Shown here piece after piece: positions 31,577 to 52,380 of a DNA stretch of 64,000 nucleotides (its first letter is position 1; each line of letters starts with the position of its first letter). Under the pieces are notes generated by a model. That model was not told where the DNA came from and ran no database searches. It worked only from the letters and a program-made list of their open reading frames with translations. The stretch is from a virus (lineage: Duplodnaviria > Heunggongvirae > Uroviricota > Caudoviricetes): positions 77,860-141,859 of the IMG/VR virus record IMGVR_UViG_3300028797_000096. One strand, 5' to 3'. A program made the position numbers and the translations under genes.

Positions 31577-32431
31577 ATGAAATGGAAAAAGTTTTATTTT
31601 GTACCAAATAATGGTTATAATATGGATAATGAAAATGTTACAGATTTTATATTATCTGCTTTATTTACCGGTGCATTGTGGATTTTGTGTTTAATTCTTA
31701 TTTTTGGATCTTGGTTTACTGTAGCTGAAGGTGAAAGAGCCATCTTAACTACTTTTGGTAAAGCTTCGAATCATATATATGAAGCAGGTTTACATATCAA
31801 GTGTCCAATTATTCAAGATGTAAAAACTTTTGATATTAAAACGATTCGTGCTGATTATAAAACACAAACTTATACAAAAGATATTCAAACAGCAAATATT
31901 ACTGTGTCATATTCATATAATTTGATTAGTAATGATATTATTGAAACATATAAAACATACGGTAATCAATGGCAAGAACGTATTTTATATCCTAACTTAG
32001 AACAAGCCGTTAAAGCTGAAGTGGGTACATGGAATGCAGATCAAATGGTTGCTAATCGTGATAAAGTAGCAGATAATATTTTAAAATCACTACAATCTCG
32101 TATGATTGAACATAAATATCCTGTTACTATTACAAATTTTCAAATGATTAATATTGATTATTCTGATCAATTTGAAAAATCTATTGAAAAGAAAGTAGTT
32201 GCAGAACAAGAAGCTTTAGAAGAAGAAAATCGTACTAAACAAGTTGAACAAAAAGCTAAACAGCAAGTTATTAGTGCAAAAAGTGAAGCTGAATCTATGC
32301 GTATTCGTGCAAATGCTTTAGCAAATAATCCAAAATTAGTTAATTATGAATTTGTTCAAAAATGGGATGGTAAATTGCCACAAATTATGACTGGTGATTC
32401 TATGCCAATTTTAATGAATTTAAATAAATAA
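31577..32431 (+). CDS. SPFH/band-7 (prohibitin-like) domain membrane protein
   Basis: N-terminal TM then ERAILTTFGKASNHIYEAGLHIKCPIIQDVKTFDIKTI typical of SPFH domains; coiled-coil C-terminal region. Confidence 0.6.
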   Translation: MKWKKFYFVPNNGYNMDNENVTDFILSALFTGALWILCLILIFGSWFTVAEGERAILTTFGKASNHIYEAGLHIKCPIIQDVKTFDIKTIRADYKTQTYTKDIQTANITVSYSYNLISNDIIETYKTYGNQWQERILYPNLEQAVKAEVGTWNADQMVANRDKVADNILKSLQSRMIEHKYPVTITNFQMINIDYSDQFEKSIEKKVVAEQEALEEENRTKQVEQKAKQQVISAKSEAESMRIRANALANNPKLVNYEFVQKWDGKLPQIMTGDSMPILMNLNK

Positions 32432-32456
32432 TTATTAAGGAAAAAAAGGCGAAGTT

Positions 32457-33710
32457 ATGTTATTTAAAACATTTGATAATGGATTAGTTTTATTATATGA
32501 AAAAAATAAAGTTAATAATAAAGATGCTTTTCATGTAAATGTTTTAACAGGTAGTGCTTTAGAAGAATCAAATGAAAAAGGAATTAATCATTTGGTTGAG
32601 CATTTAATGTTCAAAGCAAGTCATAAAAGAACGACTAAACAAATATCTGAAGAATTAGAACAACAAGGTGCTATTGTTAATGCATGGACTAATTATGATA
32701 ATGTTCGTTTTCATTTTGAATGTTTACCAGAAAAACTTGAAAAATGTGCTGAAATATATGCAGATATGTTGTTAAATAAAAATATTAGTAAAGAAGAATT
32801 TGAAAAAGAAAAGTCTATTGTATGCCAAGAAATTGCTATGTATGAAGATAATTTTGAAGCAACAAATGAAACAAATTATTTTCATGAATTTTTAAGTATG
32901 GAAGATGTGGCTGGCTCTATTAAAAGTGTTAAAAAAATTACATTAAAACAAGTAAACGATTTTATTTATAATACATATATACCAAGAAATATGGTAATTT
33001 CTGTATGTTCACATTTATCATTTCGTAAGATTTGTAAAATTGTTGAAAAATATTTTGGTATAAAACATTGTTATCTTTCTACACAAAAAGATATGCGTAA
33101 GATATGGAGTGAAAAAGCGGCTACTGCTTTTAATTTAGATATAAAGAAAAAATCTCCATATAAACAAAAGAAAAATACTGCACAAGTACAAGTATTACAT
33201 GCATATTATTTAAAAGATATTATGACTACACCAAGAATGTTAACTATATTAGAGGTTGCTTTATCAGGTGGATTATCTGCGCCTTTAATTAAAGAGATTC
33301 GTGAAAAATATGGTATTTGTTATAGTATTTATGCAGATGGGGTTGTTTTATATCCAAATCAGTTTAATAATAAATTACCACAAATTATATTAATTAAATC
33401 AAGTACAGAAAAGAAACATTTAAAACAATATTTAGCTGCAGTAGATGAAGTAGTTAAGAATTTACCAAAGCTTATATCAGATATTGATATTGAGCGTAGT
33501 GTAAATACTCTTCGTACTGCTGGGTTAAAAGCAACTGATATTGCAAGTACAAATTTCTTTTGGTATTTAAATCCAAAAACTTATCTTTGTAATATTTCAG
33601 CTGCAAAAGAAAGTGAACTAATTAACAAATGTGCAAATGATATTATAAGAAGTTTAGCTCAACGATTATCAGTTGCAGATTGTGATATTAGTATTTTAGG
33701 TAATATTTAA
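32457..33710 (+). CDS. M16 (pitrilysin/insulinase) family zinc peptidase
   Basis: inverted zinc motif GINHLVEHLMFK (HxxEH) about 45 residues from N-terminus; 417 aa. Confidence 0.65.
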   Translation: MLFKTFDNGLVLLYEKNKVNNKDAFHVNVLTGSALEESNEKGINHLVEHLMFKASHKRTTKQISEELEQQGAIVNAWTNYDNVRFHFECLPEKLEKCAEIYADMLLNKNISKEEFEKEKSIVCQEIAMYEDNFEATNETNYFHEFLSMEDVAGSIKSVKKITLKQVNDFIYNTYIPRNMVISVCSHLSFRKICKIVEKYFGIKHCYLSTQKDMRKIWSEKAATAFNLDIKKKSPYKQKKNTAQVQVLHAYYLKDIMTTPRMLTILEVALSGGLSAPLIKEIREKYGICYSIYADGVVLYPNQFNNKLPQIILIKSSTEKKHLKQYLAAVDEVVKNLPKLISDIDIERSVNTLRTAGLKATDIASTNFFWYLNPKTYLCNISAAKESELINKCANDIIRSLAQRLSVADCDISILGNI

Positions 33711-35096: not shown

Positions 35097-35156
35097 ATAT
35101 AATGTATTAAAAAACTTCATGTTTTTATACATTTTTTAAACTCTGAATACACTCTA

Positions 35157-35192
35157 AATCACCAGATTTTATATTTGGTGATTTTTTGTTTT
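35157..35192 (+). terminator. rho-independent terminator
   Basis: AAATCACCA-gattttatattt-GGTGATTT then TTTTGTTTT; upstream of the Pnkp gene. Confidence 0.65.
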
Positions 35193-35239
35193 ACAATTAT
35201 TATAAAAAATTATATAATATAAATATAAAGAGGTAATAA

Positions 35240-37441
35240 ATGAAGATCTTGTTAGTTTTAAGAGGTATTCCAGGTTCTGGTAAATCTACTTGGATTAAAG
35301 AAAGAGATTTAGAAGCATACGTTTTAAGTACCGATGCTATTCGTTTATTATACTCTTCTCCAGAACAAACTATAAAAGGTAAATATATTGTTTCTAATAA
35401 ACATGATAAACATGTTTGGGCTTTCTTTAAAGAAAGATTAGAAGATCGTATGAAGAATGGTGATTTTACTATATTAGATGCTACACATACCAAAGAATCT
35501 TATTTAAAAGATTATAAAAAATTGTGTAAAGAATATAATTATCGTATGATTATTGTAGATTTTTCTTCTGTTGATTTAGATACTTGTAAAGAAAGAAATT
35601 TAATGCGGGAAAGTTATAAACAAGTACCAAATGAAGTATTAGATCGTATGTATAATCAAATAAAAGTACCATTACAAAATAAATATGAAATTTATGATTA
35701 TAATGAATTTCCTAATTTAGATAATTTTGTATATAAAATAGATGGTAATAAATGGAAAGAAGTAGTAATATTTGGTGATATACATAATTGTTATGATCCA
35801 ATAAGAAAATACTTTGAAGCATCTCCAGAATCTGATCAAAAATTATACATCTTTATTGGTGATTATTTTGATCGTGGTATTCAAGCTAAAGAAGTATTAC
35901 AGTTTTGTTTAGACCACTGTGAAAAAGAAAACTTTGTATTTTTACAAGGTAATCATGAAATATGGGCTAAGAATTATGTAAGAGATGGTGAAGCTGCTAA
36001 AATGACACCAGATTTCAAAGATTCTTTAGTACAGTTTGGTGAATTAAAAGATCAATTAAGTAAGTTTACTAGAAGATTAAAAGTAGCAGTAAATGTTAGT
36101 TTTTACTGTCAGGGTATTTATCATAGATTTTCTATTACTCATGGTGGATTAAGCTTTCCTTTAGATTATCGTACTTCTGCAATACAATGTATTAAAGGAG
36201 TAGGTGATTATGATGATTTAGATGAAGTAGAAAAAGCTTTTGGTAGTATTAATGAAAAAATGACTATGCAAGTATTAAACTACAAATGCTATAATGTACA
36301 TGGTCATCGTAATGTAACTAATAATCCAATTATAAGTGCAGACGGCTATAGTATTAACTTAGAAGGTAAAGTTGAATTTGGTGGTAATTTAAGAATAGTT
36401 GAATTATCTTATACAGACAAAATGAATATATTACCAATAGAAATACCAAATACAATTTATAACAAAGATATACAAATTCCTTCTAGTAGACATGATAATC
36501 CAATTATTCAACAATTGGATAGTAGTAGTTTAATACATAAAAAAGATTTGGGTGATGGTATAGTTTCTTATAACTTTAGTAGAGAAGCTTTTTATAGCCA
36601 AAAATGGAATAAATTAACTACTACAGCGAGAGGCTTATTTGTTGATACTAAGACAAATCAAGTAGTTGCTAGATCTTATCCTAAATTTTTTGAAGCAGAA
36701 CAGCATCCATCTACACAATGGAGAAATTTAGAAAAGACATTAGTATTTCCAGTAACTGCTTATTTGAAAGAAAATGGCTTTTTAGGTATTGTATCTGTAT
36801 ATAATGATCAATTATTTATTGCATCTAAATCTACAAATCAAGGCGAATATAAAGAAAACTTTGAGCGTATATTAAAAACACATACAAATATTGATAAATT
36901 AAAAGAATATTTAAAAGCTAATAATTGTTCCGCTATATTTGAATGTGTAGATCCACATAATGATCCGCATATTATTGAATATGTCAATGAAAAAGTTGTA
37001 TTATTAGATATAGTACAGAATGATTTTACAGATACATTTAAATCTTATGATGATGTATGGGAATTAGCTAAACAAATAGGATGTAAACCAAAAGAAATGT
37101 GTAAAGTATTTAATACCTTTGCTGAATTAAAATCTTTTATTGAAGCATTTGATAAAGATTTTCATGAAGAAATAGAAGGTTTTGTATTTGTAGATCAGAA
37201 TAATTTTATGATTAAATATAAAACACCTTTCTATAAATTCTGGAAAGACATGCGTAGAATGAAAGAATATATTAATAAAGGTGATAATGATAAATATTTT
37301 GCCGCTAAAAATGTAAAGTCTGAACAAACAAATTTGATGAATGATTTGTTTAGTTTTATGACAGGTATTAAAAATGGTGGTATTGATTTAGATACATTAT
37401 CCATTATTGATATTAAAAACAGTTATTATAATAAGGATTAA
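35240..37441 (+). CDS. Pnkp-like polynucleotide kinase / calcineurin-type phosphoesterase with C-terminal ligase-like domain
   Basis: P-loop LRGIPGSGKST; metallophosphoesterase motifs GDIHN, GDYFDRG, GNHE; C-terminal third has ligase-like elements (ARGLFVD, EGFVFV, KYKTPFYK) reminiscent of bacterial Pnkp RNA-repair enzymes. Confidence 0.65.
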   Translation: MKILLVLRGIPGSGKSTWIKERDLEAYVLSTDAIRLLYSSPEQTIKGKYIVSNKHDKHVWAFFKERLEDRMKNGDFTILDATHTKESYLKDYKKLCKEYNYRMIIVDFSSVDLDTCKERNLMRESYKQVPNEVLDRMYNQIKVPLQNKYEIYDYNEFPNLDNFVYKIDGNKWKEVVIFGDIHNCYDPIRKYFEASPESDQKLYIFIGDYFDRGIQAKEVLQFCLDHCEKENFVFLQGNHEIWAKNYVRDGEAAKMTPDFKDSLVQFGELKDQLSKFTRRLKVAVNVSFYCQGIYHRFSITHGGLSFPLDYRTSAIQCIKGVGDYDDLDEVEKAFGSINEKMTMQVLNYKCYNVHGHRNVTNNPIISADGYSINLEGKVEFGGNLRIVELSYTDKMNILPIEIPNTIYNKDIQIPSSRHDNPIIQQLDSSSLIHKKDLGDGIVSYNFSREAFYSQKWNKLTTTARGLFVDTKTNQVVARSYPKFFEAEQHPSTQWRNLEKTLVFPVTAYLKENGFLGIVSVYNDQLFIASKSTNQGEYKENFERILKTHTNIDKLKEYLKANNCSAIFECVDPHNDPHIIEYVNEKVVLLDIVQNDFTDTFKSYDDVWELAKQIGCKPKEMCKVFNTFAELKSFIEAFDKDFHEEIEGFVFVDQNNFMIKYKTPFYKFWKDMRRMKEYINKGDNDKYFAAKNVKSEQTNLMNDLFSFMTGIKNGGIDLDTLSIIDIKNSYYNKD

Positions 37442-37452
37442 AGGAGAAAAGT

Positions 37453-37620
37453 ATGGTAGAAAAAATTACTTGCCCATATTGTGGAGAATCTTTATATAGG
37501 CATCCAAAACAATATATATTAGATAAAGAATATATATATTATTGTAAAAAATGTCAACAAGAATTTAATAAAACCATAACAAATGCTGAAAGACTGAAAA
37601 AGTTCTTGTATAAGAAGTAA
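37453..37620 (+). CDS. small zinc-ribbon protein
   Basis: 55-aa ORF not in track: CPYCG...CKKC, SD aaggag. Confidence 0.45.
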   Translation: MVEKITCPYCGESLYRHPKQYILDKEYIYYCKKCQQEFNKTITNAERLKKFLYKK

Positions 37621-41436: not shown

Positions 41437-42051
41437 ATGAAAAATAAAACAATATTATGGTTATTATTAATTTTTTGGGCAGCGATATTTTTTGTTGCAG
41501 GAATTATAAATGCTAAAGCAGAAAATTGGGTTACTTCACCAAGTAAAATGTATATGCCAGGAAATATTTATAATACAGCAATTATAAATAGTACAAATAC
41601 TGTAAATACTACTTCTAATAATAAATTTGATAGTTGTAAAAATCCAGGTACAGTAAGAAAAATTATAGTAGATAAATCTGATAAAACTTTACAGCTTTTA
41701 GATGTTAATGGATGTATAGTTAAACAATATGATAATATTCGTTTAGGTAAAAATGAAGGACCAAAGCATTGTGAAGGTGATTCTAAAACACCAGAAGGTA
41801 TTTATCATATTATAGAAAAAAGAAATTCTAAGTATGTTAAATTTTTAGCCTTGGATTATCCACAAGCTAAAGATATTAAAAAAGCAAAAGAATTAGGATG
41901 TAAACCAGGTGATTCGATTGGTATTCATAGTTGGATTGAAGGTTTACCAAAAGAAGGTTCACAAGGTTGTATTACTGTATGGACTAAAAAAGATATTCTT
42001 GAAATTAATGATTTAGTTAGTGTAGGTACTGAAGTAGAAATTAGGAAATAA
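41437..42051 (+). CDS. secreted L,D-transpeptidase (YkuD)-like protein
   Basis: signal/TM N-terminus; GDSIGIHSWIEGLPKEGSQGCITVW resembles the YkuD His..Ser.Gly-Cys catalytic region. Confidence 0.45.
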   Translation: MKNKTILWLLLIFWAAIFFVAGIINAKAENWVTSPSKMYMPGNIYNTAIINSTNTVNTTSNNKFDSCKNPGTVRKIIVDKSDKTLQLLDVNGCIVKQYDNIRLGKNEGPKHCEGDSKTPEGIYHIIEKRNSKYVKFLALDYPQAKDIKKAKELGCKPGDSIGIHSWIEGLPKEGSQGCITVWTKKDILEINDLVSVGTEVEIRK

Positions 42052-43131: not shown

Positions 43132-43614
43132 ATGGCAATAAGAGAAATAGTTAATCAAGATAATGAAATTCTTCGTAAAATTGCAGATCCAATAATAGAA
43201 TCTGATAGGGTTGATATTTCTCTTGAAAATTTAATTTATGATATGGTTCAAACTGTAAAAAGTGTAGATGGTGCGGGTTTAGCAGCACCTCAAGTAGGAA
43301 TATCTAAAAGAGTTATTGTTGTAAAAGATATAAATAAAGAAGGAAATTTTTTCGAAATGATTAACCCTGAAATTATTTGGACATCTTTTGATAAGCAATA
43401 TGAATTTGAAGGTTGTTTAAGTGTATTAGGAAAAGATGGTAAACCTATTCATGAAAGAGTAGAGAGATATAAAAGGATAAGAGTTAAATGGGAAGATGTT
43501 GATGGCAATTTACATGAAGAATTAATCAAAGATCCGTTAACGAGTAGAATTATACAGCATGAAACTGATCATTTAAATGGAAAGTTGTTTACAGACTATT
43601 TACAAAAGGAGTAA
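43132..43614 (+). CDS. def: peptide deformylase
   Basis: all three PDF motifs: GAGLAAPQVG, EGCLSV, QHETDHLNG. Confidence 0.85.
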   Translation: MAIREIVNQDNEILRKIADPIIESDRVDISLENLIYDMVQTVKSVDGAGLAAPQVGISKRVIVVKDINKEGNFFEMINPEIIWTSFDKQYEFEGCLSVLGKDGKPIHERVERYKRIRVKWEDVDGNLHEELIKDPLTSRIIQHETDHLNGKLFTDYLQKE

Positions 43615-43617
43615 TAT

Positions 43618-44217
43618 ATGTCAGAAATGTTACATTGTTGTGATAAAGATTTGAATACTATTCAACCTTATGATAGAGATGTAGTACATAAAGAAGGTAT
43701 TTGGCATAAGACTTCTCATGTATGGTTTTATGATCGAGAAGGATATGTATATTTCCAAGTAAGAGCGGATGCAGATAAATTATATACTACTGCTTCTGGA
43801 CATGTATTAGCGGGTGAAGATCCTAAAATGACAGCTTATAGAGAAACAGCAGAAGAAATAGGTATAAATATAAATACAAATAATTTAGAATTAATAGAAA
43901 TAGATAGCTGGAAATCAGATACAGAAACTAAGCATGATCATGCATATGCTTATATTTATTTATATGAAATTGCAGCAGGATTTATTGGTTTTAGCGTTAA
44001 TACTACAGAAGTAACTGATATTATTAAGATTAAAGCCGAAGATTTATTAGGATATTTATTAGGTTTACCATTTGAATGTGATCAATATTCGATTTGGGAA
44101 AGAAAGAATTTAAAACATAAAAAAGATTTGTTATTAATGAATGGTGAAGTTGGTATATTAAAATATGGTAGAATATTACAAGCTATACATAATAGGACTA
44201 AAAAAGAGGACAAATAG
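43618..44217 (+). CDS. Nudix hydrolase
   Basis: Nudix box GHVLAGEDPKMTAYRETAEEIGI. Confidence 0.7.
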   Translation: MSEMLHCCDKDLNTIQPYDRDVVHKEGIWHKTSHVWFYDREGYVYFQVRADADKLYTTASGHVLAGEDPKMTAYRETAEEIGININTNNLELIEIDSWKSDTETKHDHAYAYIYLYEIAAGFIGFSVNTTEVTDIIKIKAEDLLGYLLGLPFECDQYSIWERKNLKHKKDLLLMNGEVGILKYGRILQAIHNRTKKEDK

Positions 44218-44876: not shown

Positions 44877-45084
44877 AGCAAATGCATATGCAGCGGAAAG
44901 ATGTAAAACCCCATTGTTTAAACATGAAGATAGAAGATGGCATGTTGATTATGTTGAAAACGATAAATGGACAGAGAAATCTTTTATGGACCCAGAAAAA
45001 GCATATGAATTTTATTTGAGTATTTTTCATAAATTAGAAAAAGAATATACAAGAAAAAATAGAGAAGGTAAAGGTAGTAGATAA
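44863..45084 (+). CDS. hypothetical protein
   Basis: 73-aa ORF. Confidence 0.45.
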   Translation: MANIKANAYAAERCKTPLFKHEDRRWHVDYVENDKWTEKSFMDPEKAYEFYLSIFHKLEKEYTRKNREGKGSR

Positions 45085-45482
45085 TGGATAAAATACCAGC
45101 AATTTTTTGTGATATAGATGGTGTAGTTACGCATAAATTTGCTATTCCTAATTATGATCATTTTGGTGAACCTAATGAAAAGATGATATCTGTAATCGAA
45201 CAGCTTGGTCAAAAGTTTACTATCGTATTCATTACAGGTCGTTGGGCTATGGGTCAAGAAAAAGTAGAAAAATTACTTAATGAACTATTTCCAAATATTA
45301 AAAAGAAAGTATTTTGTAAACCACATGATTACCCCGGTACTACTGCTGAATTTAAACTCGATATGATTAAAAAGTTAGAAGAAAAAGGCTATGAGTTTAA
45401 TTTAGGCTTAGATGATCACAGCGCAGTAGTTGGTTTAATGCATAATCATGGTATATTTATGGCACAAGTATTATCAGATTAA
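45084..45482 (+). CDS. HAD-superfamily phosphatase
   Basis: motif I FCDIDGVVT (DxDGV) at N-terminus. Confidence 0.55.
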   Translation: MDKIPAIFCDIDGVVTHKFAIPNYDHFGEPNEKMISVIEQLGQKFTIVFITGRWAMGQEKVEKLLNELFPNIKKKVFCKPHDYPGTTAEFKLDMIKKLEEKGYEFNLGLDDHSAVVGLMHNHGIFMAQVLSD

Positions 45483-45527: not shown

Positions 45528-45641
45528 ATAATTATTGTAAAAAAATAAGAAAGGGTTTATACGCTTTCCTCTGTTTTAATAAGGAGTTTTTGTGAATCGG
45601 TTAAATTCTCAATTTTAAATAAAATATTGAGGAGGTATAAA

Positions 45642-46127
45642 ATGAACATGGTTAATCCATCTGCGAATAAAATTATTTTGGGTAGTTATCCAGGTTTGGT
45701 ATCTAATTTACGTAGTGAGTATTATAGTCATCCAAATAATAGTTTTTGGACATTATTAAATATTCCTACTAAAGATAAAGATGATAACAAAATTTCTTAT
45801 ATAGAAAAAATAAAAAGGTTAGCAGAAAAAGATATTGGTGTATGGGATGTATTATCTGCTTGTTCTAGATTAGATAAAAATAATAAAGAAACAAGTCTAG
45901 ATAAAAATATATCTTTACAACAATATAATAATTTAGAAAAACTAATTAATAAAGATCTATATTTTAATGGACAAACTGCTTTTAAAGAATTTTCTAAAAT
46001 CGTAAAACAACAAAATTTATCATTTGATTTAGATAAATTACAAAAACATGTTTTACCTTCTAGCAGTGGTTTGTATAGAAATAATCTAGATAAAAGAAAA
46101 GAAATATGGAATAACTTTTTTAATTAG
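45642..46127 (+). CDS. hypothetical protein
   Basis: ATG 45642 with SD gaggagg preferred; ORF track start 45627 is TTG inside the SD. Confidence 0.5.
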   Translation: MNMVNPSANKIILGSYPGLVSNLRSEYYSHPNNSFWTLLNIPTKDKDDNKISYIEKIKRLAEKDIGVWDVLSACSRLDKNNKETSLDKNISLQQYNNLEKLINKDLYFNGQTAFKEFSKIVKQQNLSFDLDKLQKHVLPSSSGLYRNNLDKRKEIWNNFFN

Positions 46128-46135
46128 TAACTAAT

Positions 46136-46172
46136 GGGCGAGCGCCGGAGTCGGAGAGCCGGGGCAGACTGT
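46136..46172 (+). tRNA. tRNA-Tyr(GUA) exon 1 (intron-interrupted)
   Basis: GGGCGAG acceptor, CCGG D-stem, GCAGA anticodon stem, loop CUGU|; near-identical to E. coli tRNA-Tyr core (GCAGACTGTAAATCTGC) once spliced to exon 2. Confidence 0.65.
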
Positions 46173-46352
46173 AAAAAATTGCAGCCTTATATAGTAATAT
46201 ATAAGTGAAAATTTGGCTAAGTCGGGGAAAGCTAAGTTAAATGATATGCTAATCCCGAGCTAGGAGAAATCCGAGTGTAGAGACTTTACACCAGACATCT
46301 TATTGAGATGAAGAGAAAGTCCAGACTACAATGTGAAAACAATGTAGCAATG
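46173..46352 (+). ncRNA. group I intron (about 180 nt, ORF-less) in tRNA-Tyr anticodon loop
   Basis: inserted after U35; internal guide GCAG pairs with exon end CUGU with a U-G wobble at the splice site; shares GTGTAGAGACT and AAGTCCAGACTACAA blocks with the tRNA-Leu intron; ends in G before exon 2. Confidence 0.6.
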
Positions 46353-46402: not shown

Positions 46403-47594
46403 CAAATGAAATCCTAGAACAACTGCTATGACATCTTAGTAATGTTATCAGCTCTAGGTAAAGATACAAGGGGATGAGTTAAATTCGACAGTATATTTTT
46501 ACTGGACTCGGTTTCAATACCGATATCTCCACCATAAAGTTTGGTGATATTTAGTTTATTACGAATAGAACATTTGGTACTAGACCAAAAGAAGCATAAG
46601 GGACATTGCAATATCACCGATACAGTTTACTAAATAATTACAAAAGATTATTTAATTGACTGGCATGATAAATGAACCAGCGAACGATAACTATAAATTA
46701 AGTGCAATAGCTGCTTGATTTAAATAAAGTTATCAATCGGAGCTGGGTAGAGCTTGGCAACAGAATCTACCAAATTTATTTGCGGGCTTAGCTCAAAAAG
46801 TATAGAAAAATATTTGGCTCGTGGGAATGCATAGTGTGTTCACCTGACTGTCACTCAGGAAATCAGATGGGGGCGGTACCCATACGAGTCGCCATAAAGT
46901 TTGGGTAAGTAGTGTGAAGTATAGCACACAGCACACTGGGCTGAAGTGTTAGGGGAAGTGCCTAACCAATAATCCCACCCTCAATTTAGCTGAGACTGCA
47001 GTAGTAGGCTAAATCCCTTGACTAACGTTCCTGGTCAGAACGATCGTCACTAGTCGATAGTAGTCGGAGTTTAATGCAGGTGTGACTTCGTTAGGTTAGG
47101 CCAACTAAATTCTGCATTTTTAATGTTTATACTTATTTCGAGTGAAATAGTCTCGAATGTATTGGTGTTCGACAATACAGCTTGCTGTAACAAGTCCAAG
47201 GGAAAGAATAGGAAACCTGAAAGAGCTCTAGTAAGGTGGAATTGGAAGTATAAATGTTTACTGTTGATATACTTTTATGTATATTAATTTCGGGTTTGAT
47301 AGGCCGGTTAGCTTGTACTCTTACAAGTCAGTGATCTAAATTCCGGGTCTTACTATCATTCTCCGCTTAAATTCCTATTAGCATTAGCTAGTATGGATTG
47401 CCAGAATGTAGAAATGCATTTTTGGTTTTTGGGGTAAAGTTTCAACTACTGATTGGACACCTCAATCCGAACATCACGGAGTTCAGCTAGTGATGCTCGA
47501 CTGAACATATTTCTGGGCCTTGACCAATGGTCGAGGATTTGCCGAGGCTTTTGGTGTTATTGAGCCATCGTAGAGAATCAAAACACCTTTATAT

Positions 47595-47669
47595 TGGCGT
47601 GTAGCTCAACGGCAGAGCTTTCGGCTGTTAACCGAATGGTTGTCCGTTCGAATCGGACCACGCCAGCCA
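47595..47669 (+). tRNA. tRNA-Asn(GUU)
   Basis: TGGCGTG/CACGCCA acceptor, anticodon loop CTGTTAA, GTCCG-TTCGAAT-CGGAC T-arm, encoded CCA. Confidence 0.85.
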
Positions 47670-47676
47670 TGTTTCT

Positions 47677-47751
47677 GGCCCCATCGTCTAATGGTTAGGA
47701 CACCGCCCTTTCAAGGCGAGAATCCCGGTTCAAATCCGAGTGGGGCTGCCA
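47677..47751 (+). tRNA. tRNA-Glu(UUC)
   Basis: GGCCCCA acceptor, anticodon loop CTTTCAA, GGTTCAAATCC T-loop, CCA. Confidence 0.75.
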
Positions 47752-47757
47752 ATTTAT

Positions 47758-47831
47758 TGGAGCATAGTTTAATGGTAGAACCCGGGATTTTGGTTCCCGT
47801 TATCTTGGTCCGAATCCAGGTGCTCCAACCA
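47758..47831 (+). tRNA. tRNA-Gln(UUG)
   Basis: TGGAGCA/TGCTCCA acceptor, anticodon stem CGGGA/TCCCG, loop TTTTGGT, CCA. Confidence 0.8.
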
Positions 47832-48024
47832 TTAAGTTTTACAGAAGTGTCTACTATTAGTTACGTATGAGGCTATAAAGGTAGGAATACGTATCAAAGA
47901 CAGCCTACTAATAAGCACGAAATAATTTTGGTAAGACTTATTAGAGGAAAGTTTTTCTTTTAGCATTGGCTAGAAGTATTACCTGAAAGTTAATATGAAA
48001 AAGTTATTAGCTTTCTTGGTCTAT

Positions 48025-48101
48025 GCTTGTTTAGCTCAGTTGGCTAGAGCATCTGCTTTACACGCAGAGGGTCAGGAGTTCGAGTCTCTTAACAAGCACC
48101 A
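48025..48101 (+). tRNA. tRNA-Val(UAC)
   Basis: GCTTGTT/AACAAGC acceptor, anticodon loop TTTACAC, GGAGTTCGAGTCTC T-arm, CCA. Confidence 0.85.
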
Positions 48102-48124
48102 AAAAATTTAAAAAAAGGAAATTA

Positions 48125-48616
48125 ATGAAAGCAATTTGTCCAAAATGTGGAATAGAATTTGAAAATGATACAAATCGAAAATTTTGTTCAAGAAAATGTG
48201 TAAATAGTCGTAATATTTCACAAGAAACAAAAAAGAAAATTTCAAATAAAATGAAAGCCAGATATCAAGAACCTGAATACAGAAAACAAATTTTGAATTT
48301 AAATAGAAAATTAGGTAATCATTTACATGAAGAAAAATTAAAAAGATTTGTAAAAGCAAAAAATGGGCAAATTTTAGATATTACATATGGGGAATTAGAA
48401 GAATACCAAAAAACTCATTTGGTATGTGAAATTTGTGGTAAAACTGAAATTGCTTCACATAACATAATAAAAAAGATATATCGAAATTATGTCGTGATCA
48501 TGATCATAAAACTTCTAAATTTCGTGGATTATTATGTAGTAATTGTAACAGAAAGTTAGGTTGGTTTGAAAATTTTAAAGATGAAATTTTCAAATATTTG
48601 AATAAAAAGCACCAGT
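48125..48616 (+). pseudogene. NUMOD3 + Endonuclease-VII/HNH-type homing endonuclease with frameshift
   Basis: N-terminal NUMOD3-like SQETKKKISNKMK; frame 2 reads ...LVCEICGKTEIASHNIIKK then must shift to frame 1 (DISKLCRDHDHKTSKFRGLLCSNCNRKLGWF) at the A6 run 48468-48473 to restore the CxxC...DHDH...RGLLC..CN motif. Confidence 0.6.
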
Positions 48617-48682
48617 AGTTTAATAGTAGAATGTAACCTTGCCAAGGTTAAGACCTCGGAGCATAACCGGGTTGGTGCACCA
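48609..48682 (+). tRNA. tRNA-Gly(GCC)-like, atypical arms
   Basis: GCACCAG/TTGGTGC acceptor, perfect anticodon stem TAACC/GGTTA with loop TTGCCAA, CCA; D-arm weak and T-loop AGCATAA non-canonical; overlaps the stop of the HNH pseudogene. Confidence 0.45.
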
Positions 48683-48684
48683 AT

Positions 48685-48774
48685 GGACAGATGGTAGAGT
48701 GGCTGAATACACTGGTCTTGAAAACCGGCATACCAGCAATGGTATCGGGGGTTCGAATCCCTCTCTGTCCGCCA
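48685..48774 (+). tRNA. tRNA-Ser(UGA)
   Basis: GGACAGA/TCTGTCC acceptor, loop CTTGAAA, long variable arm, GGGGTTCGAATCCC T-arm, CCA. Confidence 0.85.
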
Positions 48775-48782
48775 TTTTTTAA

Positions 48783-48872
48783 AGGAGTGGTGGTAGAGCG
48801 GTTTAATACAGCTGATTACTAATCAGCCGAAGCAGTAATGTTTCCGGGGGTTCAAATCCCTCCCACTCCGCC
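48783..48872 (+). tRNA. class II tRNA (Ser-like) with anticodon loop TTACTAA (anticodon ACU?)
   Basis: GGAGTGG/CCACTCC acceptor, GAGCGGTTTAA D-loop as in tRNA-Ser, perfect anticodon stem GCTGA/TCAGC, long variable arm, GGGGTTCAAATCCC, CCA; A at position 34 is unusual. Confidence 0.6.
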
Positions 48873-48888
48873 ATTACTTTATTAATTT

Positions 48889-48923
48889 TGGCCCTGTGGC
48901 GGAATTGGTAGACGCTGCAGACT
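48889..48923 (+). tRNA. tRNA-Leu(UAA) exon 1 (intron-interrupted)
   Basis: GGCCCTG acceptor, GGCGGAATTGGTAGACGC D-arm, GCAGA anticodon stem, loop CUU| ; intron inserted after U34 as in cyanobacterial/plastid tRNA-Leu(UAA). Confidence 0.65.
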
Positions 48924-49628
48924 TAGACGAAAATGAGTGTATCATAATTTATTGAAAAAGTAGTTCTATATCATAAGGAGTTAATCCTATGAAAAATAGA
49001 ATTACAGATCAAGAAATGATTGATATTATCATTAAGTCTCAAACAATGGCTTTAGCTGCTAAAAGATGTGGTATGGCATATACAACATTTATTAGGCATG
49101 CTAAAAGATTGGGTATTTATAAACCTAATCAAGGCGGAAAAGGTACTGAGAAAAAAAGATCTGCTAAAATATCTATAGAAGAAATTTTAGCAGGAAAGTA
49201 TCCTCAGTATCAAACATATAAATTAAAAACAAGATTAATAGATGAAGGATATAAAGAAGATAAGTGTGAGAAATGTGGGTGGTGTGAAAAATTAAAAAAT
49301 AGCAAATATACTCCATGCGAATTACATCATATCGATGGAAATCCTGAAAATCATTTATTATCTAATTTAATTATATTGTGTCCAAATTGCCATTCCTTAA
49401 CTAAATCTTATAGGTTTAGAAGAGGTAAGACTAATGAGCAACAAGGTAGGAAACTTCTCGATTGAATGCTGTCAAATTCGGTGAAAGGTTTTATAATCCT
49501 AACGCCGAGCGAAGCCTAGAAATAGGAACGTGTAGAGACTTAACGGCAGCCACCTAAGTAGAAATATATGGTGAAGACAAAGTCCAGACTACAAACAAGA
49601 AATTGGTAGTGAAAGCTATAGTAGTAAG
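48924..49628 (+). ncRNA. group I intron (Azoarcus / cyanobacterial tRNA-Leu type) carrying an HNH ORF
   Basis: 705 nt; guide GAGT pairs with exon end ACUU (U-G at splice site); core blocks TGTCAAATTCGGTGAAA and GTGTAGAGACTTAACGGCAGCCACCTAAG match the Azoarcus pre-tRNA-Ile intron recalled from memory; terminal G at 49628. Confidence 0.65.
48989..49465 (+). CDS. intron-encoded HNH homing endonuclease
   Basis: CEKCGWCEKL...CELHHIDGNPENHLLSNLIILCPNCH (HNH with two Cys pairs); lies wholly inside the tRNA-Leu group I intron; SD aaggag. Confidence 0.7.
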   Translation: MKNRITDQEMIDIIIKSQTMALAAKRCGMAYTTFIRHAKRLGIYKPNQGGKGTEKKRSAKISIEEILAGKYPQYQTYKLKTRLIDEGYKEDKCEKCGWCEKLKNSKYTPCELHHIDGNPENHLLSNLIILCPNCHSLTKSYRFRRGKTNEQQGRKLLD

Positions 49629-49682
49629 AAAATCTGTTGACAGTTAAATGTCGTACCGGTTCGATTCCGGTCAGGGCCACCA
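49629..49682 (+). tRNA. tRNA-Leu(UAA) exon 2
   Basis: AAAA-TCTGT, variable arm TGACAGTTAAATGTCGT, ACCGG-TTCGATT-CCGGT, CAGGGCC-A-CCA pairing exactly with exon 1 acceptor. Confidence 0.65.
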
Positions 49683-49694
49683 AAAAATTTATAT

Positions 49695-49770
49695 GGGGTT
49701 GTAGCTCAGTTGGTAGAGCATCTGCTTTGCAAGCAGAGAGTCGTCAGTTCGAGTCTGATCAGCTCCACCA
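49695..49770 (+). tRNA. tRNA-Ala(UGC)
   Basis: G3-U70 wobble identity pair, anticodon loop TTTGCAA, CCA. Confidence 0.8.
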
Positions 49771-49771
49771 T

Positions 49772-49848
49772 AGGAAGGTAGTTCAGATGGTTAGAATGTC
49801 GCTCTGATACAGCGAAGGTCGTGAGTTCGAATCTCACTCTTCCTACCA
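49772..49848 (+). tRNA. tRNA-Ile(GAU)
   Basis: AGGAAGG acceptor, anticodon loop CTGATAC, GTGAGTTCGAATCTCAC, CCA. Confidence 0.8.
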
Positions 49849-49856
49849 TAGTTTAT

Positions 49857-49932
49857 GCCTGCTTAGTTCAGTTGGTAGAACGACTGATTTGTAATCAGTA
49901 AGTCGGCGGTTCAAGTCCGTCAGCAGGCACCA
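49857..49932 (+). tRNA. tRNA-Thr(UGU)
   Basis: GCCTGCT/AGCAGGC acceptor, anticodon loop TTTGTAA, CCA. Confidence 0.8.
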
Positions 49933-50321
49933 GAGATTAGTAGGTAATCGTAGTATAGAGATAAAAGCCTTGAATCGTATATCCAATATATTTGAATGGA
50001 CGCCGTAGTCAGTAAAGGGACCTACTAAGTAAGAGATTTTGATAATAAAAAATAGGTTGAGCACATAGTGTTAACTCCAGGTTAGTCATGACTGCTGAGC
50101 ACAGACCGATCATGAAGTAACATACTTGAAACGATAGAGTAGGGTTACAGTTATCAAAATAGTGTTGGGGTAGAGTCTATATAATATATTAAGCATGTTT
50201 ATGCAATCCTTGGATGTTTATATTTGATTGACTCTACAACAATTTTAACCGGATATTAGTGAATGATAATTATTTATTATGCCTAATATCTATAAGTCTA
50301 AGAAAAACATAAGGAAAAAAT

Positions 50322-50747
50322 ATGTTTATTAATACAAATGGAGGTTTGATTGATACTCCAGAACGCTTAATCAATCATTTTGCATCTCTTCCTGAATATA
50401 CTGATATTCAGAAGTCTTTAATTGAAGATCATTGTGCTTGCTGTGCTAAAAGCTTTGCTAGAGGTGTTGGTAAAGTTACAAAAGAAGAGGTATGGTTTGG
50501 TGCTTTAGATGTGTTTCCATATATATCTAATAAGCATGAATTTACCAATGAAGATTTTTTAATTAAAAGATGGGGTATTGATTGGCAAAAAGCTAGGTTA
50601 AAAGAAAGACCAGATGTAGATATTGATAAATCTACTAAAAGTCAATTAGGAAAGATTTTTTACGATGCCTTATTGAGAGATAAAAACGCTATTTATAAAT
50701 GGCGTAGAGTAGAAGGCAAATATTTTGAATATTGTCGTATAAAATAG
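50322..50747 (+). CDS. hypothetical protein
   Basis: 141-aa ORF within tRNA island; CACCAK motif. Confidence 0.5.
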   Translation: MFINTNGGLIDTPERLINHFASLPEYTDIQKSLIEDHCACCAKSFARGVGKVTKEEVWFGALDVFPYISNKHEFTNEDFLIKRWGIDWQKARLKERPDVDIDKSTKSQLGKIFYDALLRDKNAIYKWRRVEGKYFEYCRIK

Positions 50748-50835
50748 TTCAAATATAAAAGGGTGGGACAATTGCTATGATGTTTTAGTAACATTATCAA
50801 TCCCACCCAATGAGTTTAAAATAAGAGGTAAAATC

Positions 50836-51108
50836 ATGTCATTTAACCGTAAACAAACACCAATTGCAACAAACGATCATTGGAATTTATATTTATTAGG
50901 ATTTTGTAAAGAAAATGTTCGTAAAGCTGTGTTAATTAATTATCTTACTAATGATGAATTATCTGCAAAAGTTAATGTAGGTGCAGATATTACTGGTAAA
51001 AATACACAATATACTGTAATTGAAGCGGTTGATGAAAAAACAAATCATTTAGTTGATTTTACTAAAACATTTGTTGTTCCGGGTAAATATGTTAAAACTC
51101 GTGGATAA
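50836..51108 (+). CDS. hypothetical protein
   Basis: 90-aa ORF, SD aagaggtaaaatcATG. Confidence 0.5.
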   Translation: MSFNRKQTPIATNDHWNLYLLGFCKENVRKAVLINYLTNDELSAKVNVGADITGKNTQYTVIEAVDEKTNHLVDFTKTFVVPGKYVKTRG

Positions 51109-51377
51109 TAAATATTAAAAGTTTTGGTCTTATAGGTCAAAGACTAAAATGACGGGGACAGCCTGAAGATAGGAGGCTGCTGCTTGGATCGGCAATATAG
51201 GGTCTCACAAAATACATAAGATTGACCTCACAGTGTTTTCACGCTGATAATCTTATGGTGAGTGTATGCAAAACCTGATTGAGTTGGTTCAAATCCAGAC
51301 AGTTAGGTAGGCAAGGTGTTGGAGCATGAACACACTTAGATGGGTTGCTCCTTATAGTTTTATAGGAAGGATATGAT

Positions 51378-51611
51378 ATGAAAGATATATGTACTGAAAT
51401 TATAAAAGAGTTAGAAAAAATGGGATATACTGCATTTCAAATAACTCCAGAGATGTCTATTCATGAAGATTTAGGTTTAGATTCATTAGATACTATTGAA
51501 TTGGTTGCTAAATTAGAAGAAAAATTTGATATTCGTATAAAAGATGATGATTTAGTAGATGTAAAAACGATTCAAGATATTGTAGATATTGCTAATAAAT
51601 ATTTAAAATGA
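51378..51611 (+). CDS. acyl carrier protein
   Basis: 77 aa acidic; phosphopantetheine attachment motif DLGLDSLDTIELVAKLEEKFDIRI. Confidence 0.8.
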   Translation: MKDICTEIIKELEKMGYTAFQITPEMSIHEDLGLDSLDTIELVAKLEEKFDIRIKDDDLVDVKTIQDIVDIANKYLK

Positions 51612-51734
51612 GAGTTTAACCGATAAAAGAAATAGTTCTATATAATATGAAAAAAATAAATGTATGTTTTTGGCCATGCTTTCCTAGTACCTTTGGAGGT
51701 AAGTGTTAATCATACTTTTATAGAAGATTAGATA

Positions 51735-51764
51735 CCTCCAGAAATAAAAAGCTGGAGGTTTTTT
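51735..51764 (+). terminator. rho-independent terminator after the ACP gene
   Basis: CCTCCAG-aaataaaaag-CTGGAGG then TTTTTT. Confidence 0.8.
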
Positions 51765-51853
51765 AATTGAGTTTGGTAGTTGTAGTATAATCAATACACT
51801 TCCCAATGGGGTAGAAGAGATGTAAGTAAAATCTTATCGATTACCACAGTTTA

Positions 51854-51931
51854 TCGGAATGTAGGATAATCTGGTTATTCCGCCTGTTTTGGGTACAGGA
51901 GACTCCCGGTTCAAATCCGGGCATTCCGACC
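51854..51931 (+). tRNA. tRNA-Pro(UGG)
   Basis: CGGAATG/CATTCCG acceptor, anticodon loop TTTGGGT, CCCGGTTCAAATCCGGG, CCA. Confidence 0.8.
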
Positions 51932-51937
51932 AGTTTT

Positions 51938-52014
51938 TGGCTGGGTAGCTCAGTTGGTAGAGCAAGGGACTGAAAATCCCTGTGTCAGTGGTTCGATCCC
52001 GCTCTCAGCCACCA
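51938..52014 (+). tRNA. tRNA-Phe(GAA)
   Basis: GCTCAGTTGGTAGAGC D-arm, anticodon loop CTGAAAA, CCA. Confidence 0.85.
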
Positions 52015-52019
52015 ATCTT

Positions 52020-52093
52020 GGCCAGGTGGCAGAATGATTATGCAGAGGACTGCAAATCCTTGTACATCGGTTTGATTCCGGTCCTGGCCTCCA
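52020..52093 (+). tRNA. tRNA-Cys(GCA)
   Basis: GGCCAGG/CCTGGCC acceptor, anticodon loop CTGCAAA, discriminator U, CCA. Confidence 0.75.
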
Positions 52094-52098
52094 AATCT

Positions 52099-52172
52099 AG
52101 GTCATTAGTTTAGTGATAAAACAAAGATCTCCAAAATCTTAGTCGGTGGTTTGATTCCATCATGACCTGCCA
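52099..52172 (+). tRNA. tRNA-Trp(CCA)
   Basis: AGGTCAT/ATGACCT acceptor, anticodon loop CTCCAAA, CCA. Confidence 0.75.
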
Positions 52173-52303
52173 TTATTTTGGAAATTTAGTTAAAAAAAGT
52201 ATTTACAAATAAAAATAAATGTATATAATATATAATATCTACTTGCTGCCATACTAGATTTCCCAGTTACCATCGTAGTAAGTACAGCAAGTAGGTAGTT
52301 TAT

Positions 52304-52380
<77 letters not shown>

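Follow-up and report, generated by a model that had tools for sequence, protein, structure and literature searches.

A predicted single-chain RNA repair enzyme from a phage combines Pnkp-type healing domains with a Trl1-type ligase domain

A single phage gene encodes a protein that blends two known forms of RNA repair enzyme, namely the healing domains of bacterial Pnkp and a sealing domain of the Trl1 type. The protein is probably a self-contained “heal-and-seal” RNA repair enzyme that would restore RNAs cut in infection. It belongs to a very large family found in both phages and bacteria. RNA heal-and-seal repair has been characterised in three forms: T4 Pnkp with Rnl1, bacterial Pnkp/Hen1, and fungal and plant Trl1 with Tpt1. 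The gene lies in the window, which here means the whole 64,000-nt stretch of DNA that was analysed (Table 1). An earlier sequence-only reading of it was confirmed as an observation and partly supported as an interpretation. The analysis shows the domain identities, the folds, the conservation of all catalytic residues, and a genomic association of family members with tRNA and RNA repair genes; the three activities, the RNA target, and the biological role are inferred. The source of the gene is a giant gut phage.

Table 1. Coordinates of the enzyme gene, its predicted domains, and nearby signals in the window.
Feature	Position	Strand	Remarks
Terminator-like hairpin, 12-bp stem AAATCACCAGAT/ATTTGGTGATTT, then T-run	35156..35194	+	sequence read
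Sigma-70-like promoter candidate, TTTACA / 17-nt spacer / TATAAT, 11/12 matches	35190..35218	+	consensus match only
Ribosome-binding site AGAGG, 5 nt 5' of start codon	35230..35234	+	sequence read directly
ORF, 733 aa + stop	35240..37441	+	predicted trifunctional RNA repair enzyme (kinase, phosphoesterase, ligase); PHROG 8238 member
Polynucleotide 5'-kinase domain, aa 1-160	35240..35719	+	P-loop G9/G14-K15-S16, catalytic D32, R35, R123
Binuclear metallophosphoesterase domain, aa 165-404	35732..36451	+	predicted 2',3'-cyclic phosphodiesterase / phosphomonoesterase
Linker, aa 405-437	36452..36550	+	partly disordered; pLDDT < 50 at aa 412-418 (full-length model)
ATP-dependent RNA ligase adenylyltransferase domain, aa 438-661	36551..37222	+	motifs I, III, IV, V
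Helical ligase C-domain, Trl1 (Rnl6)-like, aa 662-733	37223..37438	+	structure superposition + profile alignment
tRNA island, 15 Rfam-supported tRNAs + one intron-containing tRNA	47595..52380	+	context only

The hairpin marks the end of the upstream unit, within a 187-nt intergenic gap; three terminator-like sites were found versus 0.5 expected. The promoter candidate sits 21 nt 5' of the ATG, in AT-rich DNA where promoter-like sites are not enriched over shuffles (38 versus 30.8 ± 5.6). An antisense ORF with a TTG start (35200-35493, 97 aa) falls within conserved kinase coding sequence and was for that reason discarded as spurious.

The kinase, the phosphoesterase, and the ATP-dependent ligase follow one another in the order that had been read from the sequence (kinase, metallophosphoesterase, nucleotidyltransferase-like region). 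The key residues of the phosphoesterase are D180, H182, D208, R212, N238, H239, H301, H354, and H356. The ligase carries motif I (K510-E-N-G), motif III (E568), motif IV (E646-G647), and motif V (K659/K661), together with R464/K482/F483 of its N-subdomain. Its H577 aligns to CthTrl1 His227, and K669 and R672 of the C-domain, which ends in a SIIDI(K/R)xxY helix, align to R334 and R337. All three active sites are invariant in the family and fused in one chain. The full-length model has a pTM of 0.58, which leaves the inter-domain geometry uncertain and the domain arrangement without a confident prediction.

The N-terminal P-loop kinase would phosphorylate the 5'-OH, and the bacterial-Pnkp-type binuclear metallophosphoesterase in the middle would open the cyclic phosphate, possibly through a 2'-phosphomonoester as in the characterised homologue. 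In the C-terminal ligase, K510 would be adenylylated and AMP transferred to the 5'-phosphate, after which attack by the 3'-OH would join the ends. During infection, the enzyme probably restores tRNAs of the host or encoded by the phage, or other RNAs of translation, which may be cut by host anticodon nucleases or other ribotoxins. It would be a one-protein counter to tRNA-cleaving defences in the phage-host conflict, and possibly a new single-chain reagent for repairing or ligating RNA. No measured activity was found for any family member in the literature searched.

The kinase and phosphatase domains are nearest to those of Clostridium thermocellum Pnkp (CthPnkp; Pnkp/Hen1; TIGR04075), which has the same domain order. 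As in bacterial Pnkp, there is an N-terminal P-loop polynucleotide 5'-kinase and a central lambda-phosphatase-like binuclear metallophosphoesterase that serves as the 3' end-healing domain. The earlier assignment to the bacterial Pnkp type stands for these two domains and falls for the third. The ligase is Trl1-like, no C-terminal Pnkp-type (Rnl4) ligase domain was found, and the protein matches the TIGR04075 equivalog model only in part (3.9e-18). The close known system for the ligase is the LIG domain of fungal tRNA ligase Trl1 (Rnl6 clade; PDB 6N0T/6N0V/6N67, 9QW7, 9R3W). In the predicted structure, 306 of 329 residues superpose on Trl1-LIG versus 246 on T4 Rnl1, and the C-terminal nucleotidyltransferase fold proposed earlier is present. 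The profile alignment with Trl1 extends to the end of the Trl1 C-domain; the hhalign alignment with T4 Rnl1 ends directly after motif V. Of the Rnl1 adenylyltransferase domain, the window ligase has motifs I, III, IV, and V as well as the Rnl1-like N-subdomain. They are followed by a helical C-domain of the kind that distinguishes Rnl6, the Trl1-type LIG, where it is all-helical and about 80 aa long (PMC6379707). The C-domain of T4 Rnl1 is of another, larger type (about 120 aa) that is responsible for tRNA specificity and reads tRNA shape; this type is absent, and the window C-domain comprises 72 aa. The homology of the C-domain to Trl1 rests mainly on the predicted structure and the full-length profile alignment, because a C-domain-only profile (A6, 65 positions) gave no PDB match at E <= 10 and pairwise hhalign of the C-domain alone gave only weak in-register matches. 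Against the T4 Rnl1 C-domain, the profile gave an E of 0.35, and no homology was detected.

The window ligase is a relative of the fungal tRNA-splicing ligase and not of the bacterial Pnkp ligase. It is an autonomous Trl1/Rnl1-superfamily enzyme, and therefore a Hen1 activator is not needed. In the viral fold library, the ligase module is also found on its own, as the phage protein A0A8S5TYL2 (TM 0.87). Bacterial Pnkp has its partner Hen1 encoded alongside; Pfam sweeps for Hen1 or another methyltransferase family, the partner implied by the sequence-only reading, found none among about 90 window ORFs. A Pnkp/Hen1-type system would have its ligase domain activated by Hen1 and its junction 2'-O-methylated against re-cleavage. 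The domain order, the nearness of the healing domains to CthPnkp, and the partial TIGR04075 match would fit such a system, but it is already refuted for the ligase domain and is exceedingly improbable here. In the literature found, the Trl1 (Rnl6) clade is treated as fungal, with plant and kinetoplastid candidates.

The architecture also differs from that of other repair systems. Full-length fungal and plant Trl1 has the order LIG-KIN-CPD with a 2H-family cyclic phosphodiesterase, whereas the window enzyme has the order KIN-phosphoesterase-LIG and a metallophosphoesterase as its 3' healing domain. T4 Pnkp and Rnl1, which act in tRNA restriction-repair against PrrC, are two proteins instead of one chain. 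The 3'-phosphatase of T4 Pnkp is of the HAD/DxDxT type, and the ORF has no HAD domain, as had been recognised from the sequence. The baculovirus AcNPV ORF86 Pnk/Pnl, reportedly described by Martins and Shuman in 2004, likewise joins three functions in one viral chain, with a ligase of the Rnl1 superfamily, a polynucleotide kinase, and a 3'-phosphatase. Its ligase is reported to be N-terminal and its phosphatase HAD-type.

The window protein matches PHROG 8238 (“RNA ligase”) over its full length (E 5.9e-175, residues 1-708 against profile positions 1-710 of 737). Members of this family from Staphylococcus phage Twort (ORF008), SPbeta-like phages (e.g., Goe11_c00950), and Fusobacterium phage phiKSUM (CDS0128) share the three domains at full length with about 35% identity, as well as the catalytic residues and the triad discussed below. 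They are annotated as “RNA ligase”, “hypothetical protein”, or “serine/threonine phosphatase”, and no biochemical study of them was found in the literature searched. A 100% identical protein (P0001) occurs on contigs of up to 231,566 bp. Together with relatives on jumbo-phage contigs of about 220-250 kb, some of them from human-gut (Hadza) samples, the window protein forms a distinct subclade whose members are 68-85% identical to one another. A near-identity DNA search with the section from 30 to 45 kb of the window gave no match in 50,697 phage records, and there is therefore no annotated close relative. A role outside repair was also considered, either as a tail-fibre attachment catalyst (cf. 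the second activity of T4 gp63/Rnl1) or as a NinI-like Ser/Thr protein phosphatase. The ligase part is hit by PHROG 562 (“RNA ligase and tail fiber protein attachment catalyst”; 4e-28), PHROG 246 (NinI-like phosphatase) matches at 7e-19, and some homologues are annotated as “putative serine/threonine protein phosphatase”. Such a role is nevertheless highly unlikely, given the three invariant active sites fused in one chain, a phosphoesterase whose structure resembles the RNA-end phosphatase of CthPnkp more than lambda phosphatase or PP1, and chromosomal copies within RNA-repair operons of bacteria without tail fibres.

The sealing chemistry can be approached through a triad of residues. In CthLIG, the His-Arg-Arg triad H227, R334, and R337 binds the RNA 2'-PO4, and in fungal Trl1 these residues have no role besides 2'-PO4 recognition (PMC11404444). 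The window enzyme has this triad with K669, a conservative substitution and not the literal Arg of Trl1. H577 is conserved in 93/93 sequences and R672 in 92/92; at position 669, 78 sequences have Lys and 14 have Arg. In T4 Rnl1 the triad is missing: the His position falls in an alignment gap, and motif V is followed by “LHSTK”. The favoured view, held at about even odds and by analogy with fungal Trl1, is that the ligase recognises its substrate by the 2'-phosphate which the phosphoesterase leaves behind; Tpt1/KptA, where present, or the enzyme's own monoesterase would then take this phosphate off. A fuller proposal is more tentative, somewhat short of even: the ligase would truly belong, as a prokaryotic/viral member, to the Trl1 (Rnl6) clade, the phosphoesterase would open >p to 2'-PO4, the H577/K669/R672 pocket would read it, and the 2'-PO4 remaining at the junction would be removed by Tpt1/KptA where present or by the enzyme's own monoesterase. 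T4-type chemistry, which concerns the sealing sub-mechanism and not the repair function, is a serious alternative, though likewise below an even chance. The phosphoesterase would then strip the phosphate to 2'-OH/3'-OH, as wild-type CthPnkp and T4 Pnkp do, the ligase would make a clean phosphodiester, and the triad would bind another RNA phosphate. CthPnkp His189 is needed for the phosphomonoesterase (PMC2190708); its equivalent, His182, is kept in the window enzyme and 76/93 relatives. Wild-type CthPnkp supplies substrates to T4 Rnl1 but not to the yeast ligase (PMC1920235), and the predominance of Lys at position 669 points the same way. Plant Trl1 requires a 2'-P without these arginines (PMC12440814), so the triad is an imperfect predictor of this need. 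T4-type chemistry is less easily reconciled with a triad that is invariant across 93 very divergent enzymes and has its sole known fungal role in 2'-PO4 recognition.

The distribution of Tpt1, whose known substrate is RNA 2'-PO4, bears on both readings. Probes for Tpt1, Thg1-like, RlaP, and WYL proteins found none in the six-frame translation of the window, and Tpt1/KptA is absent from six phage neighbourhoods of relatives. The kptA neighbourhoods of phiCD211 and an Erwinia jumbo phage have no such ligase beside kptA, and cultured phages with the enzyme share scarcely any genera with those carrying KptA. The absence from the window and the six neighbourhoods and the small genus overlap favour T4-type chemistry; against it, enzymes of the His182/Lys669 type share an operon with Tpt1 in one clade. 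This link and the natural Gln variants at the His189-equivalent position, such as a Gln182/RxxR enzyme from Saccharibacteria (L033), are indirect evidence for sealing of the Rnl6 kind, which needs a 3'-OH,2'-PO4 end and leaves a 2'-PO4 at the junction. In bacteria, operons with the order Tpt1 - Thg1-like - enzyme occur under WYL regulators, among them a Phascolarctobacterium operon with or without RlaP (L055/L054), and offer a concrete system for testing 2'-phosphate chemistry. A working 2'-phosphate pocket would mean that phages and bacteria, too, ligate tRNA by yeast-type chemistry. Passages in two papers pose the function of Tpt1/KptA in organisms without a yeast-type ligase as an open question (PMC6097658, PMC6573784), which a functional pocket would address. 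On that reading, the RNA 2'-PO4 substrates of bacterial and phage Tpt1/KptA would naturally arise from this family, which would also be a candidate for the origin of the eukaryotic tRNA-splicing ligase. If the enzyme follows the T4 pathway, its gene is one more phage RNA repair gene, compact but otherwise ordinary.

Family members are genomically associated with tRNA and RNA repair genes. The bacterial operon partners are tRNA-centred (Thg1-like, RlaP), PTH2 lies upstream of the enzyme gene in one locus (L012), and in Saccharibacteria the gene adjoins ValRS-like and TsaD-like ORFs, as judged by sequence inspection only. These associations weigh against a target other than tRNA, such as phage mRNAs or rRNA cut by toxin-antitoxin RNases, type III CRISPR or Cas13 collateral RNases, or colicin-like rRNases, or the processing of phage intron or tmRNA-like transcripts. 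Such a target is unlikely, but several observations would suit it: the T4 Rnl1-type tRNA-specificity C-domain is missing, fungal Trl1 reads RNA ends and not the shape of the tRNA (PMC11404444), no tRNA gene adjoins the enzyme gene, and a DEAD-box helicase comes after the enzyme-Tpt1 pair in another locus (L018). The large tRNA island noted earlier is indeed present, with a somewhat lower count than the 17 tRNAs given then. It lies about 10 kb downstream of the enzyme gene; the link between them is circumstantial, and the island tRNAs are possible substrates or a parallel counter-measure. No anticodon nuclease target was identified in the window. The neighbours of the gene in the window are mostly orphans, and neighbours differ even between 74%-identical phage relatives. 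Neither among the phage relatives nor across 88 related loci in 49 clades was a recurrent or universal partner found, and three of the four largest non-enzyme neighbour clusters were antisense artefacts inside the enzyme gene. Elsewhere in the window, a separate small HAD_PNKP-like ORF lies at 45084-45482.

The open reading frame was placed exactly by the sequence-only reading (35240-37441, + strand, ATG start, 733 aa), and its observation of a three-domain RNA repair ORF is confirmed. The P-loop GIPGSGKST can be read in the translation, as can the phosphoesterase motifs GDIHN, GDYFDRG and GNHE, and three Pfam domains follow one another along the protein (feature table). A hairpin, a promoter-like site and a ribosome-binding site stand in front of the gene, which looks as if it opens its own transcription unit. 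The small zinc-ribbon ORF behind it is probably co-transcribed, because of the short spacing after the stop codon; relatives do not conserve this ORF beside the gene.

Features of the window and of selected homologous loci
Feature	Position	Details
Hairpin and T-run	35156-35194	Upstream of repair gene
Promoter-like site	35190-35218	Near consensus, TTTACA-17-TATAAT; upstream of repair gene
Ribosome-binding site	5 nt ahead of ATG of repair gene	AGAGG
AAA_33 kinase	aa 4-142 of window ORF	Pfam, 8e-21, over curated cutoff
Metallophos	aa 175-313 of window ORF	Pfam, 3e-13, over curated cutoff
RNA_lig_T4_1	aa 463-665 of window ORF	Pfam, 8e-38, whole profile, over curated cutoff
Zinc-ribbon ORF	37453-37620 (+)	55 aa; begins 12 nt past repair-gene stop; own GGAG ribosome-binding site
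SPFH/Band 7, M16 (insulinase-type) peptidase, YkuD	31577-33710 and 41437-42051 (+)	Cargo rare for a phage
Peptide deformylase, then directly NUDIX hydrolase	43132-44217 (+)	Deformylase PF01327, 6e-40
HAD phosphatase	45084-45482 (+)	132 aa; DxDxT motif (FCDIDGV)
UDG-like ORF	45627-46127	
Group I intron match	46162-46345 (+)	56.8 bits, E 1e-12, over gathering threshold
Candidate two-piece (permuted) tmRNA	~46440-46809 (+)	Tag peptide EPANDNYKLSAIAA* (lowered-stringency ARAGORN)
alpha_tmRNA (Rfam)	46622-46774	Sub-threshold, 36.4 bits against gathering score 50, E 9e-8
tRNA island	47595-52380	About 10 kb downstream of repair gene
tRNA no. 15	48609-48679 (+)	Rfam, 49.2 bits; missed by ARAGORN
Class II tRNA gene	48890-49682 (+)	Split in anticodon loop by 702-nt intron
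ORF in tRNA intron	48989-49465	Weak HNH match
Group I intron core in tRNA intron	49397-49609	65.1 bits, over Rfam gathering threshold
PTH2 (peptidyl-tRNA hydrolase), L012	7556-7990	Directly upstream of homologue P0085; phage contig ERZ1667813 scaffold_1130
KptA, L024		36 nt upstream of enzyme
KptA, L055 type		KptA - Thg1-like - enzyme
KptA, L018		Enzyme stop overlaps KptA start; DEAD-box helicase next; chromosomal

The healing module had been described as bacterial-Pnkp-like, and this was right. Across 68 homologues (39–85% identity), G14-K15-S16, D32, R35 and R123 of the kinase never vary, and the phosphoesterase motifs, whose conservation had been marked for checking, retain the full binuclear-metal and phosphate-binding set (D180, H182, D208, R212, N238, H239, H301, H354, H356). 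Inteins typically settle in catalytic motifs. Three relatives (P0007, P0038 and P0019) carry one directly after the phosphoesterase GNHE, and P0019 has a second, with an HNH domain, inside the kinase P-loop; both sites are therefore independently marked as functional.

The interpretation of the sequence-only reading is partly supported: it was right on the type of function and on the healing module, but wrong on the family (Pnkp/Hen1) and the ligase type; the ligase falls into the Rnl1/Rnl6 clade and not with the Rnl4 of Pnkp. The nucleotidyltransferase fold of the C-terminal domain was borne out. In the homologue alignment, motif I (K510-E-N-G), motif III (E568), motif IV (E646-G647) and motif V (K659/K661) are invariant, as are R464, K482 and F483 of the ligase N-subdomain. 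In the ligase-domain comparison, Rnl5 and Rnl2 stood at about 13. Ligases of the Rnl1/Rnl6 clade act without Hen1, and no methyltransferase was found among the about 90 window ORFs checked for a Hen1-like partner.

RNA ligases are sorted into clades by the domain attached to their adenylyltransferase core, and Trl1-LIG is the founder of Rnl6 because its C-domain, helical and about 80 aa long, is unique; just 252 residues of Trl1 and T4 Rnl1 are superposed, none of them in the C-domain (PMC6379707). The predicted model superposed over 306 of 329 residues on Trl1-LIG versus 246 on T4 Rnl1, the extra 60 or so residues corresponding to the 72-aa C-terminal helical region. The family profile matched the Trl1-LIG of C. 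glabrata with E 3.5e-34 and that of Chaetomium with 2e-23. These fungal alignments reach the last C-domain helix (phage SIIDIRxxY versus fungal GIIKLRN(E/D)F); alignments with T4 Rnl1 (E about 2e-11) end at the close of motif V. A profile of the C-domain only gave no PDB match, and its pairwise hhalign comparison with two fungal C-domains was weak and in register (E 0.003 and 0.0014, probability 10–18%), with E 0.35 for the T4 Rnl1 C-domain as a control. The window ligase is likely a member of Rnl6, a call that depends chiefly on predicted structure and full-length alignment because the C-domain-only searches are weak.

There is a high probability that the window ORF encodes an autonomous trifunctional RNA heal-and-seal enzyme, one that most probably shields the tRNA pool against host ribonucleases during infection. 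Compared with bacterial Pnkp and Trl1, Pnkp-type healing is fused to a probable Trl1-type sealing domain, a combination that looks new in the literature searched. PHROG 8238 matches the protein over its full length (E 6e-175), and more than 1193 homologues were found, with all three Pfam domains in all but 5 among the 120 listed. Among cultured phages, the window protein is covered to at least 80% by 112 records, at about 35% identity and annotated as 'RNA ligase', 'hypothetical' or 'Ser/Thr phosphatase', and species-representative bacterial assemblies hold 294 loci with family members. The window gene is a new member of this catalogued family, which is uncharacterised as far as the literature search showed. 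No universal neighbour of the enzyme exists across 88 loci from 49 clades, which fits a self-sufficient enzyme, and phage neighbourhoods differ even among close relatives.

Fungal Trl1 seals 3'-OH,2'-PO4 ends only, and in Chaetomium LIG the residues that impose this need are His227, Arg334 and Arg337, which touch neither ATP nor metal and whose mutants adenylylate RNA 60- to 580-fold more slowly (PMC11404444; PMC12440814). The Shuman laboratory predicted the 2'-PO4 need of Mucorales ligases from two conserved arginines, and this was later confirmed (PMC10946426). In the phage enzyme, the three residues align with H577, K669 and R672, respectively. The comparison took in 93 enzymes of 49 clades (clustered at 70% identity): H577 occurs in 93 of 93 and R672 in 92 of 92, and at position 669 there are 78 enzymes with Lys and 14 with Arg, the Arg giving a literal RxxR. 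The pattern is kept in Twort ORF008, an SPbeta-like Goe11 protein and Fusobacterium phage phiKSUM; T4 Rnl1 differs: the His position is a gap, and LHSTK follows motif V. The triad is suggestive of 2'-PO4 recognition but not diagnostic, because plant Trl1 requires the 2'-phosphate without these arginines (PMC12440814).

A phosphoesterase of the same kind, that of C. thermocellum Pnkp, turns 2',3'-cyclic phosphate ends into 2'-phosphomonoesters; in its wild-type form the enzyme goes on to strip the 2'-phosphate and T4 Rnl1 seals those ends, whereas H189D loses the monoesterase, leaves the 2'-PO4 and shifts repair onto the yeast ligase (PMC1920235, PMC2190708). The equivalent residue, H182, is kept in the window enzyme and 76 of 93 relatives; the other 17, from Saccharibacteria, one Helicobacter locus and two Paenibacillus loci, have Gln. 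Residues 182 and 669 pair as (His,Lys) in 74 enzymes, (Gln,Arg) in 13, (Gln,Lys) in 4 and (His,Arg) in 1, and all 13 (Gln,Arg) enzymes come from one Saccharibacteria lineage, which means few independent co-variation events. In these bacteria (L033, the oral taxon 488 chromosome CP128407.1, and about 12 related loci), Gln182 is combined with the literal fungal-type RxxR in the ligase. Such enzymes nevertheless form a natural counterpart of the laboratory 'reprogramming' mutation and possess the most Trl1-like pocket. The Saccharibacteria gene is chromosomal, in a conserved neighbourhood beside ORFs that on sequence inspection resemble ValRS and TsaD.

The presence of H182 counts against a 2'-phosphate route in the window phage and favours T4-like sealing. 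The same is true of the surroundings: Tpt1, Thg1-like, RlaP and WYL genes were not found within the 64-kb window or six phage neighbourhoods, and the cultured phages encoding KptA (98 records, including Erwinia/Dickeya jumbo phages, C. difficile phiCD211-like phages and others) barely overlap in genus with those encoding the enzyme. T4-like sealing by the window enzyme is a serious possibility, if a tentative one. Bacterial loci point toward a 2'-phosphate. With an E. coli KptA probe, 9 loci were found in which a Tpt1/KptA gene (PF01885 1.5e-40 and 9e-43) adjoins the enzyme gene and shares its strand, and the linked enzymes are of the His182/Lys669 type, as in the window. They form one clade of three sub-lineages (60%, 73% and at least 93% identity); the KptA genes co-diverged with them (60–67% identity), and gene order differs per sub-lineage. 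The linkage supports a 2'-phosphate intermediate and would be compatible with Tpt1 acting after sealing, as in yeast, or before it. Action on a terminal 2'-phosphate ahead of sealing was proposed for phage systems (PMC7824862, PMC9503650), and has been shown for a subset of Tpt1 enzymes (PMC6573784). For the window enzyme, Trl1-like 2'-phosphate-dependent sealing has at most an even chance.

Phascolarctobacterium operons (L055, L054) also encode a Thg1-like tRNA 5'-end repair polymerase (PF04446 2.5e-31, plus Thg1C), RlaP (PF10127 3e-93) and WYL/WCX regulators, and in unrelated clades (L083, L081) RlaP and a Thg1-like gene again turn up close to the enzyme. A peptidyl-tRNA hydrolase gene precedes the enzyme on one phage contig. 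These neighbours speak strongly for a family function in RNA repair, namely the repair of tRNA. The bacterial loci L055, L054, L024 and L018 are RNA repair operons whose general order is WYL/WCX regulators, Tpt1/KptA, Thg1-like and the trifunctional enzyme; some have RlaP as well. The L018 pair lies downstream of an ORF that resembles IleRS on inspection, and NADAR and HD-domain genes lie 2-3 kb further upstream of the L012 PTH2. Of more interest than the phage gene as such are the implications of its family, which suggests a branch of the 'fungal' Rnl6 ligases in prokaryotes and viruses and offers a concrete, testable source of 2'-phosphate RNA that bacterial and phage Tpt1/KptA could act on.

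The window belongs to a jumbo phage of an uncultured lineage with relatives in gut and rumen samples, because a 100% identical protein is present on metagenomic contigs of up to 231,566 bp and 68-85%-identical proteins on contigs of 220-250 kb with T4-like structural genes, some of which come from the human gut (Hadza samples); in addition, a copy at 77% identity is carried by a 245-kb contig that was binned into a 'Bacilli bacterium' MAG from rumen. No DNA-level resemblance was found among 50,697 phage records. GC content is low (24-34%), and nearly every gene lies on one strand. The window encodes a T4 Gp23-like major capsid protein, MoxR-like ATPase, HNH endonuclease, SNase, NUDIX, peptide deformylase, M16 peptidase and many orphans.

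The tRNA island proposed earlier exists, at some distance from the repair gene rather than next to it, and the count of 17 is corrected to 14 by ARAGORN, 15 by Rfam and 16 with the intron-containing tRNA. The latter is Ser(aga) according to ARAGORN; its exons (GGCCCTGTGGCGGAATTGGTAGACGC...CTTA / AAATCTGT...) look like tRNA-Leu(UAA), the classic group I intron host. Its intron was missed by the whole-window gathering scan and caught with laxer filters. A second group I match follows shortly after the UDG-like ORF; the 1.5 kb in which it lies hold no ORF of at least 90 aa. The tmRNA candidate, if real, would be a phage-encoded ribosome-rescue RNA adjoining the island. Together with the tRNAs and the repair enzyme, this candidate and the deformylase/NUDIX pair suggest that functions in translation support are clustered here. 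Between the repair gene and the island, the HAD ORF matches PF25109, the PNKP phosphatase-domain family (4e-7, 30.6 bits, cutoff 27.6), and could be a separate polynucleotide 3'-phosphatase or a nucleotide phosphatase. Elsewhere, the M16 peptidase comes with an inactive partner domain, and YkuD is an L,D-transpeptidase domain protein.
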